From the IMG/VR virus record IMGVR_UViG_2778261069_000008: 25,564 nucleotides of DNA, one strand, 5' to 3'. How positions within the stretch are numbered: the first letter of the stretch is position 1; each line of letters starts with the position of its first letter. Source of the stretch: a virus (taxonomy: Duplodnaviria > Heunggongvirae > Uroviricota > Caudoviricetes). The position numbers and the translations under genes are program-made. The notes below the pieces were generated by a model. That model did not search any database and had not been told where the DNA came from. It worked only from the letters and a program-made list of their open reading frames with translations. This document shows positions 2,780 to 25,437 of the stretch, in pieces.

Positions 2780-2854
<75 letters not shown>

Positions 2855-2857
2855 ATA

Positions 2858-2933
<76 letters not shown>

Positions 2934-2935
2934 AC

Positions 2936-3012
2936 TGGACCGCCACCGGGGACTCGAACCTCGCACACTCAACTTAAAGGGTTGACGCTCTTTCCTGATG
3001 AGCTAGTGGCGG
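2936..3012 (-). tRNA. Atypical tRNA-like gene (anticodon loop CCUUUAA, apparent anticodon UUU with C at position 33)
   Basis: Reverse complement CCGCCACTAGCTCATCAGGAAAGAGCGTCAACCCTTTAAGTTGAGTGTGCGAGGTTCGAGTCCCCGGTGGCGGTCCA; 7-bp acceptor, D-arm with GG, T-loop TTCGAGT, CCA end, but C33 instead of the universal U33 and an A-C mispair in the T-stem. Confidence 0.5.
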
Positions 3013-3013
3013 T

Positions 3014-3089
3014 TGGTGGCCCTTGCTGGATTTGAACCAGCGACCTGGCGATTATGAGTCGCTCGCTCTCACCACTGAGCTAAAGGGCC
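3014..3089 (-). tRNA. tRNA-Ile2-like (anticodon CAU; ileX/ileZ-type, could be annotated Met)
   Basis: Reverse complement GGCCCTTTAGCTCAGTGGTGAGAGCGAGCGACTCATAATCGCCAGGTCGCTGGTTCAAATCCAGCAAGGGCCACCA; loop CUCAUAA; strongly resembles E. coli tRNA-Ile2 as recalled. Confidence 0.8.
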
Positions 3090-4351: not shown

Positions 4352-5407
4352 TCATGCTTTCCACTTCAGGACACCCGAATTTCTCGCGTGCATTAAAAAA
4401 CGAATCAGCAACAACAGCTGGCTGCCGTGTTTTTCTTCAAAATCTTTTACCCCGGCGTGCAGTTCGTTATGACATTTGCGGCACAGCGGAATAACAAACA
4501 AATCATCAGCCTTTGTTCCCATCCCTCCCAGTCCATGACCAATGATGTGATGCGGATCATCTGCCTGATTACCGCACGTCATGCATTTCTGCGTTTTTAC
4601 CCAGCGCGTGTATACAGGCATCTCTTCCCGTTGTGGTTTCTGGCGCTGGAGATACTGAGCCGGTGACTCCGGATCAACGGCAATGCTGACCACCGTCTTT
4701 TCCTGTGGCGGGTTTTGCTGGTGGGCGTGAGGCAGCGGCGCAAGATTTTTTGTGCGCTGCTTCAGTATGCTGGTGGCGGTCTGCTCTCCCGGTACGATGT
4801 CGCTTTCACGGTACATTGAGCGGATTTTTTCCGCACGCAACCCCAGCGAACGACGTAATACCGCTTCCGGTAGCGCGTCCGCCACCTGATTGCGGACCGC
4901 CCACCAGGATAATTCAGCCAGAGATAATTCACGCTCCTGCGTACCGCTTATTGCGTGACCGATGGCGTCAATCATCCATGCTGACAGGTTTTGATGAGCA
5001 AGTTGCTCGAGTGATTCGGATGTCTGGTCACGCAGCTGGTTGTCGCAGTGCCAGCACAACACCATTGCGCCGGTACCATAACGGTGAATGACGGTTTCGC
5101 TGTGATGATAATCGCCGTGTGGCCACTGGCAGGATTTAATATGGCGCAACAGCCAGTCAGACAATGCACCAGCACCACCAGCAGCACGAATCACCCGTGC
5201 GTTACTGAAAAACGGCAGCAATGTTTTGTCTTCCACCAGCGGCTGGCGAACGGCAGGAACGACCCCGGACGGCAGATTACGCATGCTTTTCGGTTCCGGC
5301 TCCACCAGCACTCGAGGATTGTGAAATACCTGCATGGATTCACGACCTGGCTTAAGGACCACCAGCCCGAGTTCCGGTACCAGAACAGGTCGAAGTAATA
5401 CCCGCAC
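4352..5407 (-). CDS. DUF968-like prophage protein with C-terminal HNH-type Cys/His motif (YdfU-like)
   Basis: 351-aa ORF (GTG start in the track; true start may be internal); C-terminus CMTCGNQADDPHHIIGHGLGG...LCRKCHNELH; size and position match Qin YdfU-type proteins as I recall them. Confidence 0.55.
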   Translation of the reverse strand: MRVLLRPVLVPELGLVVLKPGRESMQVFHNPRVLVEPEPKSMRNLPSGVVPAVRQPLVEDKTLLPFFSNARVIRAAGGAGALSDWLLRHIKSCQWPHGDYHHSETVIHRYGTGAMVLCWHCDNQLRDQTSESLEQLAHQNLSAWMIDAIGHAISGTQERELSLAELSWWAVRNQVADALPEAVLRRSLGLRAEKIRSMYRESDIVPGEQTATSILKQRTKNLAPLPHAHQQNPPQEKTVVSIAVDPESPAQYLQRQKPQREEMPVYTRWVKTQKCMTCGNQADDPHHIIGHGLGGMGTKADDLFVIPLCRKCHNELHAGVKDFEEKHGSQLLLLIRFLMHARNSGVLKWKA

Positions 5408-5854: not shown

Positions 5855-6010
5855 TTACTCCTCAGGTTCGTAAGCTGTGAAGACAGCGACCTCCGTCTGG
5901 TCGGTTCGGATTCGTACCTCGCAGAGGTCTTTCCTCGTTACCAGTGCCGTCACTATGACGGTTAAACAGATGACGATCAGGGCGATTAACATCGCCTTTT
6001 GCTGCTTCAT
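5855..6010 (-). CDS. hok: Hok/Gef-family type I toxin
   Basis: MKQQKAMLIALIVICLTVIVTALVTRKDLCEVRIRTDQTEVAVFTAYEPEE, 51 aa with a single TM helix; matches HokD/RelF as recalled; the track ORF carries a 19-codon in-frame upstream extension. Confidence 0.85.
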   Translation of the reverse strand: MKQQKAMLIALIVICLTVIVTALVTRKDLCEVRIRTDQTEVAVFTAYEPEE

Positions 6011-6422
6011 AGCCTGCTTCTCCTTGCCTTTCGGCACGTAAGAGGCTAACCTACATGTGTCTAGCATGAAATTGGCCTCAGATTAATGTTAAGCGTCTTG
6101 CAGGACGCGTAATGTTAACTGGGGCTTTTCTCTATCTGCCGTTGGTGTTCATGCCCGAGGCAGATAGCCTCAAGCACCCACAGCCATTCTACTTAACTAC
6201 CGTTACCTCGCCAATATGAAATCAGTCAGAAAGGCGATCCATAAGAACAACAGCAAGGCAATAAATTGCCATTACAGCAGCAATAGCCAGCGCACATTTC
6301 AGAACCAGCACAATGACCTCCCACATTTGACGTACACGTGCATGATTCAATATGTGGCAACCTCCTCCTTGCTTCAATGTAAAATCAAGTATTGTTGTAT
6401 AACTATTTAACCAACTCCCTAT

Positions 6423-11858: not shown

Positions 11859-11902
11859 ATTAGGCAAAGCCTATTGACAATCAATTAGGCATTACCTATA
11901 GT
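11859..11902 (+). promoter_or_regulatory. pL-like early-left promoter with overlapping operator repeats
   Basis: TTGACA (11874-11879) - 17 nt - TATAGT (11897-11902); two more TAGGC-N3-(G/A)CCTA operator-like repeats at 11859-11874 and 11884-11900 overlapping the -35 and spacer. Confidence 0.55.
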
Positions 11903-12882: not shown

Positions 12883-13092
12883 TTATAAGGAAACACCAGC
12901 AGGGCCGCGGCGACCAACAGAACGATTAAAATCAATAATGCCATTATAAAGGACATTATTTAATTTATCGTCGAATGCTGATTCTGTGAGCCTCAACTCT
13001 GAATGAGTTTTTAATAACCCTGATTGCCTGAGTTGATTTACTAGGCATTCAATCTGTTTTTCAATAAGCGGATTTCTTTTTTTGTTTGGCAT
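12883..13092 (-). CDS. Small basic protein (69 aa) convergent with the early-left operon
   Basis: Strong SD GGAGG 5-6 nt before the ATG at 13092; MPNKKRNPLIEKQIECLVNQLRQSGLLKTHSELRL...; its stop abuts the stop of the 212-aa gene. Confidence 0.45.
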   Translation of the reverse strand: MPNKKRNPLIEKQIECLVNQLRQSGLLKTHSELRLTESAFDDKLNNVLYNGIIDFNRSVGRRGPAGVSL

Positions 13093-13442
13093 TTTATCCT
13101 CCATTGAGGTTCTGGGTTAAAAATGGAGACCAACACGCTGTCACGTGTGGTCGTGCGCCGGACACGGATAAGAATCCGGTACTGACAGTTTACTGAAAGG
13201 ATATATCCCTGAAAAGCCAGGGCATAACGCGAAAGCACACGGCGAAATTGGTCTCTCTGTACGGTGTCGTTAAATTTAATTCGACCGTGCGCTTCCGGTT
13301 GTGGCACTCCGCGAAATGGCGCGGCGGTAAGTATGGCGGGGTTATTCCTTCCCCGTTGAGGACACCGGGTTGTCAGGTTGACCATACGCTTAAGTGACAA
13401 CCCCGCTACAACGCCCTCTGTTATCAATTTTCTGGTGGCGTT

Positions 13443-13485
13443 TGGCGGTATCAGTTTTACTCCGTGACTGCTCTGCCGCCCTTTT
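13443..13485 (+). terminator. Terminator-like hairpin upstream of the KilR-like gene
   Basis: GGCGG...CTGCCGCC arms followed by CTTTTT; irregular stem, weak call. Confidence 0.3.
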
Positions 13486-13659
13486 TAAAGTGAATTTTGT
13501 GATGCGGTGAATGCGGCTAAGCGCACGCGGAACAGTTAAAACCAAAAACAGTGTTATGGGTGGATTCTCTGTATCCGGCGTTAATTGTTAACTGGTTAAC
13601 GTCACCTGGAGGCACCAGGCACCGCATCAACAAAGTTCATTTGTAAAAATGGAGATAAT

Positions 13660-13882
13660 TATGATTGCTCATCACTTCGGAACTGATGAGATTCCTCGTC
13701 AGTGCGTGACTCCCGGTGATTATGTTATTCATAAAGGAAGAACATATATTGCTTCGGTAAACAACATTAAAAAACAACGGCTCTATATTCGTGATTTTTC
13801 CACACAACACTGTATTAAGGAAACCATGATTAAAGTCTTCCTTGGTCGTGATGGTTTACCTGTAAAAGCAGAGTCATGGTGA
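13660..13882 (+). CDS. Small early-left protein, possibly KilR-like
   Basis: 73 aa from the ATG preceded by [39 protein letters not shown]...; size and position match Rac kilR, but the sequence identity is not confirmed from memory. Confidence 0.5.
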
Positions 13883-25041: not shown

Positions 25042-25437
25042 AGGGCAACCTCCGATGAGTATTATTCATTACCACCACCAGAGGTTCCAATCTCATGGGT
25101 GGTGGAACCGGACGGGGTTGGAACTACCGGCCTCATCGACACCGGCGCGTCTTGCGACGCCCCCGCCCGGCCCACCATTGAGATGCAGCCAAGCGCACGA
25201 CACAAAAAAAGCGCTAACGCGCCTTGTGTCGTCGATGAAGTTAGCCAGGGGTTCCAATCCCGACGCCTGATTTTGCAGGCGCAGGGGAAGGATACTGCGA
25301 TGGATAAACAGTGGCAAGAATTAACAACAAAAAAAGAATGACGCAGAAGTCTGTCGAGATTTCAATCTATTATTGAACACCGCGTTCCAACAGGCATACA
25401 CTCCTCAGTGAGACTCAGACTGAGCCAGCCTGTGAAC

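Follow-up and report, generated by a model that had tools for sequence, protein, structure and literature searches.

The DNA analysed here, which we call the window, is a stretch of 25,564 nucleotides from a Caudoviricetes record (IMG/VR record IMGVR_UViG_2778261069_000008). In its early-left operon, a gap of about 550 bp separates a convergent small ORF on the - strand from a kil gene on the + strand. What does this gap encode? The antisense ORF extends over 12883-13104 in the ORF list and over 12883-13092 in the PGAP annotation of a 99.7%-identical genome; kil occupies 13661-13882, and there is no credible gene between them. Fold prediction with the RNA of 13105-13665 gave -202.8 kcal/mol (z = -4.34 against shuffled controls), and the part from 13425 to 13665 gave z = -4.88 against the same type of control. 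We conclude with high confidence that a lambdoid (Qin/Rac-like) E. coli prophage has its DicF locus in this gap, in other words, an RNA-processing cassette in a repressor-controlled early-left operon. What we observed directly is which RNA this is (DicF), how the RNA around it is conserved and predicted to fold, and which genes surround it; these results are described below.

An Rfam scan of the whole window detected DicF (RF00039) at 13430-13481 on the + strand with 76.4 bits (E = 1.7e-15). The gathering score of this family is 48 bits and the match covers the full model (1-52 of 52), so that the covariance-model search proposed in the initial annotation gave a result well above the threshold. 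The gene is as follows.

13429-13481 (53 nt) plus U-run to 13486, + strand: DicF sRNA gene (RF00039); a 5′ single-stranded seed and then an intrinsic terminator hairpin.

This DicF is identical to E. coli K-12 DicF at 52 of 53 nt, and the target-pairing sequences are those of K-12 to this extent. The single change, A10G, falls in the 5′ seed; the 3′ pairing and terminator part is identical to that of K-12. In K-12, the 3′ part of DicF pairs with ftsZ and pykA and the 5′ part pairs with xylR (PMC5069750). Because A10G is located in the 5′ seed, the pairing of this copy with xylR may differ from that in K-12. The terminator is a composite hairpin (13434-13440/13474-13480 and 13444-13449/13467-13472) followed by TTTTT at 13482-13486. 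In the predicted fold of 13429-13486, the 5′ UUUCU is unpaired and the hairpin has an energy of -18.5 kcal/mol (z = -2.59) on the + strand, in contrast to -11.1 kcal/mol on the - strand. Thus, the RNA has the expected form of a DicF, namely about 53 nt with a single-stranded 5′ part, a Rho-independent terminator and a U-run. A simple terminator scan missed this terminator only because the hairpin has internal loops, and the miss is not evidence against it.

The RF00039 match and the identity to K-12 DicF together explain several features that had been noted from the letters of the sequence. The terminator-like element at about 13443-13485 is the DicF 3′ hairpin. The tL-type terminator that had been suspected in the gap exists as an intrinsic terminator in the early-left operon, and it is DicF's own. 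Likewise, the proposed small antisense-type regulatory RNA is DicF. The name DicF had not been given, and therefore the novelty that was implied is absent: DicF has been described since 1989-1990 and is present in most E. coli genomes. The more specific suggestion of an antitoxin sRNA did not hold. DicF acts in trans on host mRNAs such as ftsZ (PMC5069750) and is encoded on the same strand as kil. A type I toxin-antitoxin antisense RNA was rejected on this ground. Between DicF and kil, the fold predicts a single contact, in cis, in which the Shine-Dalgarno sequence of kil forms 6 bp with the 5′ end of DicF; dicB-type loci do not conserve it.

The operon around DicF contains the following elements.

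11874-11902, + strand: promoter-like site TTGACA-17-TATAGT, matching the sigma-70 consensus at 11/12, between the repressor-like and DUF1391/ydfA-like genes.
13651-13654, + strand: kil Shine-Dalgarno sequence (GGAG), 6 nt 5′ of the ATG at 13661.
13661-13882, + strand: kil, 73-aa FtsZ inhibitor (NCBIfam NF008465 'FtsZ inhibitor protein'; PGAP).

The kil product matched NF008465 with 140 bits (cut-off 92). Because the PGAP start is at 13661 and the NCBIfam model aligned over residues 1-73 of 73, the kil start is most likely 13661 and not 13649. On the + strand, a helix-turn-helix repressor-like gene is followed by the promoter-like site, a DUF1391/YdfA homologue and a 216-aa ORF. The convergent small ORF, the gap, kil and an 823-aa exonuclease with an Rv2179c-like domain lie 3′ of the 216-aa ORF. 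Judging from the consensus match and its position, the 11874-11902 site is likely the promoter of the operon transcript that yields DicF and the counterpart of dicBp. A consensus scan found no promoter-like site on the + strand inside the gap. This agrees with the published absence in Qin, where DicF has no internal promoter of its own (PMC10448788). Gene order and consensus scans therefore place this DicF, like other DicF RNAs, in a prophage early operon under a CI/DicA-type repressor and without its own promoter. By gene order, the layout is that of a dicBF operon in which kil replaces dicB/ydfD. The Qin dicBF operon (ydfABC-dicF-dicB-ydfD) and the window share DicF (52/53 nt), a module of about 490 bp, the precursor hairpins and the post-terminator leader. 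In both, the early operon is repressor-controlled and DicF lies 3′ of a DUF1391/ydfA-like gene and 5′ of a division inhibitor and an exonuclease gene. In contrast, the window has kil instead of dicB/ydfD, the 216-aa ORF and the convergent 69-73-aa ORF instead of ydfB/ydfC, the seed substitution A10G and one mismatch in the upstream helix.

The RNA 5′ of DicF is predicted to fold into two domains and a linker.

13226-13300 (13226-13246 with 13280-13300), + strand: long hairpin with an 18-bp basal helix and a variable apical cassette (fold); candidate RNase III site.
13298-13412, + strand: multibranch precursor domain, with closing helix 13298-13305/13405-13412 and three inner hairpins.
13309-13313/13320-13324, + strand: multibranch-domain hairpin (fold).
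13335-13341/13351-13357, + strand: multibranch-domain hairpin (fold), containing GGGG/CCCC.
13367-13375/13395-13403, + strand: multibranch-domain hairpin, the 9-bp stem GGGTTGTCA/TGACAACCC (exact pairing).
13413-13428, + strand: AU-rich single-stranded linker (…CUCUGUUAUCAAU), unpaired in folds, ending at the mature DicF 5′ end.

The basal helix of the long hairpin is predicted in all 32 sequence alleles, and the apical portion of about 35 nt consists of several unrelated cassettes. The allele in the window has one A-C mismatch in this helix, and its + strand fold is no better than shuffles (z = -0.91). DicF and the leader described below fold better on the + strand than on the - strand, as expected for RNA that contains G-U pairs. 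The window's upstream helix does not show this bias because of its A-C mismatch. In the multibranch domain, 98.2% of the cells were paired across 63 homologues, and most of the changes are compatible with wobble pairing, as with UA/UG at 13302/13408. Three loci have another hairpin in place of the GGGG/CCCC one. The stems listed in the initial annotation are all present: the 9-bp stem at 13367-13403 is exact, GGGG/CCCC lies within the helix given above, and CCGGA/TCCGG is present at 13158-13162/13175-13179. In the predicted structure, the 9-bp stem is part of the folded 5′ portion of the DicF precursor.

Between the DicF terminator and kil, the transcript would carry a structured leader.

13487-13643, + strand: structured 157-nt leader, closed by a 22-bp duplex (13488-13509 with 13620-13642), with four inner hairpins.
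13513-13517/13523-13528, + strand: inner hairpin (fold).
13529-13535/13569-13576, + strand: inner hairpin with a variable apex (fold).
13577-13586/13594-13603, + strand: inner hairpin (fold).
13605-13609/13615-13619, + strand: inner hairpin (fold).

The leader fold is -62.7 kcal/mol (z = -6.0) on the + strand versus -50.6 kcal/mol on the - strand. We counted pairs in the 63 homologues, which are close relatives (at least 88% identical). For DicF and the leader, 95.0% of the cells were paired as compared with 33-43% when the partners were slid, a percentage that is inflated because the structure under test came from the sequence of the window itself. Nine pairs were changed on both sides versus 2.3 in shuffles (0/500), and this covariation signal is thin because the homologues are so similar. 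A comparison of folds across homologous prophages had been suggested as a check on the stems; it gave pairing that is kept in the 63 homologues, some double compensatory changes and hairpin-for-hairpin swaps. In subsets of the homologues, unrelated replacement sequence is found at about 13241-13279, at 13341-13362 and at 13536-13568, with the flanking helix arms retained.

A species-wide scan for diverged DicF gave matches only in Escherichia, Shigella and metagenome bins. With matches of this range only, the divergence available for covariation is low. The metagenome matches were in bins labelled Peptostreptococcaceae, Veillonella and Collinsella (L127, L129 and L131). L127 was excluded as a DicF locus: it is a chance match with unrelated flanks. 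L129 and L131 may be mis-binned E. coli prophage contigs.

The sequence AAGC(A/G)CACG occurs twice, at 13233-13241 upstream of DicF and at 13519-13527 downstream, and both copies are complementary to CCGTGCGCTT (13285-13294). With two complementary copies, the pairing may differ between terminated and read-through transcripts: CCGTGCGCTT, which lies at the expected RNase III site, has the downstream AAGCGCACG (13519-13527) as an alternative partner to the upstream copy (13233-13241). In the full-length fold, the pairing of CCGTGCGCTT with the downstream AAGCGCACG was not chosen, and the alignment columns concerned are invariant or mismatched at the ends.

The part of the gap that is conserved by BLAST is wider than DicF.

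13152-13641, + strand: conserved 'DicF module' of about 490 bp, counterpart of the Qin ydfC-dicB intergenic region.

Copies of this module with 88-97% identity are present in about 4,630-4,720 of 5,426 complete E. coli genomes (approximately 85%), with a median of two per genome. In a K-12 derivative, the module fills the ydfC-dicB spacer of prophage Qin. In phage Tritos, it lies between ydfC and dicB, and 'DicF antisense sRNA' is annotated there. In contrast, a query spanning the junction from DicF to kil was covered by 80% or more in only 134 of the 5,426 genomes, and the downstream gene is dicB in most others. IMG/VR, phage and genome records provided 114 DicF contexts that were informative. 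Downstream of DicF, dicB was found in 107 of them, kil in five and another gene in two; upstream, ydfC was found 66 times, other genes 51 times and the pair of the 216-aa ORF and the antisense ORF five times. Phage Evi has the same DicF-kil arrangement as the window. The variable neighbours indicate that the DicF block is a portable cassette and that its pairing with kil is a minority recombinant. Multiple dicF copies in different prophage contexts have been described in O157:H7 Sakai and EDL933 (PMC5069750). There, as here, DicF and parts of the operon are recombined into various lambdoid prophages; the neighbours described there are of the dicB type, whereas the window has kil.

The leader has a separate distribution. 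In Rac-SA53 and in the Stx phages 75/02 and phiSTEC1589, the leader, the ribosome-binding site and kil/kilR are nearly invariant, except that the apex of an inner hairpin is replaced while its base is kept. In all three, a terminator hairpin with another 5′ tail occupies the DicF slot directly before the leader.

L135:2490-2544, Rac-SA53: hairpin in the DicF slot, 41.1 bits with the DicF model (threshold 48).
L134:2670-2720, phiSTEC1589-Stx1c: hairpin in the DicF slot, 35.6 bits, also sub-threshold.
L133, about 2560-2620, 75/02: hairpin in the DicF slot; no match to the DicF model reported.

Upstream of the slot hairpin, Rac-SA53 and 75/02 do not align with the window's precursor part, whereas phiSTEC1589 keeps part of this precursor. 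The Rac-type arrangement is present in 1,838 of the 5,426 E. coli genomes, and kilR is the sole annotation there. From their sequences and position, the slot hairpins of the Rac and Stx kil prophages may be uncharacterised DicF paralogues.

How the RNA would be processed can be proposed by analogy with Qin; work on that prophage supplies the enzymes, the sites at which they cut, the binding to Hfq and the target mRNAs (ftsZ, pykA, xylR and manX). In Qin, DicF is cut from a polycistronic transcript (PMC10448788; PMC5069750; PMC9438474, citing Faubladier et al. 1990). The 53-nt DicF has a 3′ end formed by Rho-independent termination and a 5′ end made by RNase E (PMC10448788, PMC5069750). RNase III makes the 5′ end of a species of about 190 nt (PMC10448788); when transcription reads through the terminator, the same enzyme makes the 3′ end of a species of 72 nt (PMC5069750, PMC9438474). 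We extrapolated the cut positions from the K-12 RNA lengths, as the window and the K-12 locus align here without indels. The resulting cuts, near 13292 and near 13500, fall inside the two longest predicted conserved helices (18 bp and 22 bp). Therefore, the 13226-13300 hairpin is a candidate RNase III site for the 5′ end of pre-DicF of about 190 nt, and the 13488-13509/13620-13642 duplex is a candidate RNase III site for the 3′ end of the 72-nt DicF. RNase E cleavage is expected at 13428/13429 in the linker, a position set by homology with annotated DicF. The published '813/814' cleavage coordinate could not be placed, because the K-12 locus showed no consensus promoter.

On this basis, transcription from the promoter 5′ of the ydfA-like gene would pass through the gap, and most transcripts would end at the intrinsic terminator 13434-13486, which would form the DicF 3′ end. 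A cut by RNase III in the conserved long hairpin near 13292 would yield the precursor of about 190 nt, and a cut by RNase E in the AU-rich linker at 13428/13429 would release the 53-nt, Hfq-binding DicF. This RNA would pair with host mRNAs (ftsZ and pykA via its 3′ part, xylR via its 5′ part, and manX), resulting in a block of division and altered metabolism. Transcripts that read through the terminator would carry the 157-nt folded leader, and its 22-bp closing duplex would be the likely second RNase III site; a cut there would produce the 72-nt form of DicF and a trimmed mRNA of the next gene, here kil and not dicB. We compared the predicted accessibility of the ribosome-binding site in unprocessed RNA and in RNA cut in the duplex. 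The unpaired probability increased modestly after the cut for K-12 dicB (from 0.04-0.06 to 0.33-0.37) and for Rac-SA53 (from 0.51 to 0.74-0.88), and that of the kil Shine-Dalgarno sequence in the window, which is mostly paired throughout, was 0.13-0.34 in every construct.

Other readings of the gap were weighed against the DicF locus. We give almost no credence to the idea that it holds a decayed protein gene, such as a dicB or sieB remnant, or a hidden small protein gene. ORFs of 26-128 aa do overlap the gap on both strands, and in the RefSeq/PGAP annotation of the 99.7%-identical genome (NZ_CP039404), DicF is unannotated and the only gene in the gap is a 'partial DicB' pseudogene at window positions 13551-13634. 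None of these ORFs had a Pfam or NCBIfam match. Relative to one another, the homologous copies of the gap have 1-nt indels and exchanged whole cassettes, which is incompatible with a conserved reading frame, and their conservation pattern is that of a paired RNA. The earlier statement that neither strand contains a convincing ORF was therefore correct. The 'partial DicB' call appears to be an annotation artefact, because, as we read the alignment, the leader of dicB-type loci shares the reading frame of dicB; moreover, its GTG start lies inside a variable cassette that is replaced in several loci. Nut-like boxA/boxB sites for an N-type antiterminator, which had also been suggested, are scarcely more credible. 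The hairpin CCCTGAAAAGCCAGGG at 13207-13222 resembles lambda boxB, which is GCCCTGAAAAAGGGC, and a related Stx1c phage with the same upstream segment encodes N. A lambda-type nut site needs a boxB with a 5-bp stem and a GAAAA/GAAGA pentaloop, together with an N antiterminator gene in the operon. The hairpin in the window has a 6-nt loop in place of a GNRA-like pentaloop, and its outer pairs (13207/13222 and 13208/13221) are mismatched in most homologues. Family searches of the ORFs between the promoter-like site at 11874-11902 and the gap found no N-like gene. Furthermore, the Qin operon works without N (PMC10448788). From the boxB-like hairpin and the search for N, a lambda-type nut site was rejected.

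It is also highly improbable that the gap is only a terminator and a spacer, that is, a tL-type attenuator that limits the toxic kil, with the DicF-like sequence being a relic that has no role in trans here. In favor of this, the terminator is directly 5′ of a toxic gene, and Rac kilR is silenced at the level of transcription read-through (PMC5793797, PMC10798246); the different hairpin in the same slot in Rac and the Stx phages suggests that terminator function is the common denominator. In contrast, the seed and the ftsZ-pairing part agree at 52 of 53 nt with the functional K-12 DicF, and DicF is nearly invariant in 63 diverse copies, far beyond the needs of a terminator. Moreover, the roles of terminator and sRNA can coexist. 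For the leader alone, we consider it unlikely, to a lesser degree, that 13487-13643 is an independent sRNA gene of the STnc100/PasD type and not a cis-acting kil leader. STnc100 is reported to be related to PasD and both are prophage sRNAs (bioRxiv 10.64898/2026.05.13.724894). The region 13483-13668 matched STnc100 (RF02076) with 38.3 bits (E = 1.3e-6), and Rac-SA53 gave 43.8 bits and two Stx phages 32.9 and 30.8 bits; all of these are below the gathering score of 47, although the matches of 38.3-43.8 bits are significant (E about 1e-6). The leader folds very strongly and has the architecture of the model, with a long closing stem, several inner hairpins and the conserved CACC-GGAGGCACC-GGCACC hairpin (CACCnGGAGGCACCnGGCACC). 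However, the 3′ terminal hairpin of the model is barely aligned and would overlap the kil start codon, no + strand promoter-like site precedes the segment, and a kil or dicB ribosome-binding site lies directly 3′ of it in every locus examined. Furthermore, STnc100/PasD genes stand on their own at other places in the phage, such as downstream of stx2 (PMC12370729), whereas this segment is positioned as the 5′ leader of kil/dicB. The leader was thus not assigned to STnc100.

With the DicF locus as the preferred reading, the leader may have a wider role. Tentatively, we propose that it is a distinct and widely shared cis-regulatory RNA, distantly related to STnc100/PasD, which always precedes genes for division inhibitors (dicB of Qin, kilR of Rac, and the kil gene of Stx phages and other lambdoid phages) and always follows a slot for a terminator-type sRNA (DicF, or a diverged DicF-like RNA, with different 5′ tails). 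The whole would then be a modular cassette of an sRNA plus an RNase III-gated leader that sets the level of a toxic inhibitor. This proposal is possible but less likely than not. In the literature that we searched, including the work on kilR read-through, no description of the 157-nt leader was found.

Several other RNA features were detected in the window. A sok antitoxin RNA (RF01794, 115.3 bits) at 6005-6179 on the - strand implies a hok/sok-type toxin-antitoxin locus in the prophage. On the same strand, C4 antisense RNA (RF01695, 76.1 bits) at 25095-25182 adjoins isrK (RF01394, 63.3 bits) at 25204-25282, and this pair suggests a P1/P7- or Gifsy-type immunity/antirepressor control region in a second mobile element. 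An EFASI RNA (RF02957, 94.8 bits) is located at 22681-22809 (- strand). A cluster of four tRNA genes (Gly-TCC, Thr-TGT, Lys-TTT and Met-CAT) lies at 2780-3089 (- strand), inside a prophage-like region. Just past the end of the early-left operon, there are genes for tRNA-Ser (CGA; 17817-17906, - strand) and tRNA-Asn (GTT; 18898-18973, + strand). The prophage may plausibly have integrated at the tRNA-Ser gene, which would then mark its boundary.

Thus, an apparently empty stretch of the operon is accounted for by the well-characterised DicF, and a false lead to a novel sRNA is removed. RefSeq leaves DicF unmarked here and places in the leader a 'partial DicB' pseudogene that appears to be spurious. 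Three points are mildly new. One is that the published RNase III-dependent ends can be mapped, by extrapolation, onto two conserved helices. Another is the rare coupling of DicF and kil. The third is the STnc100-like leader that is common to loci with possible DicF-like paralogues in Rac-type prophages. Through DicF, a prophage halts host cell division and rewires metabolism, and in EHEC this RNA feeds into virulence control. The coupling with kil would place two independent FtsZ-directed inhibitors in one operon, an RNA that acts on ftsZ mRNA and a protein that acts on FtsZ. The leader is common to Rac kilR, whose expression depends on transcription read-through (PMC5793797, PMC10798246), a control that matters physiologically in the OxyS/NusG pathway. 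If the modular cassette is true, a DicF paralogue that is still uncharacterised would be encoded by Rac-type prophages, which are present in 1,838 of the 5,426 E. coli genomes.
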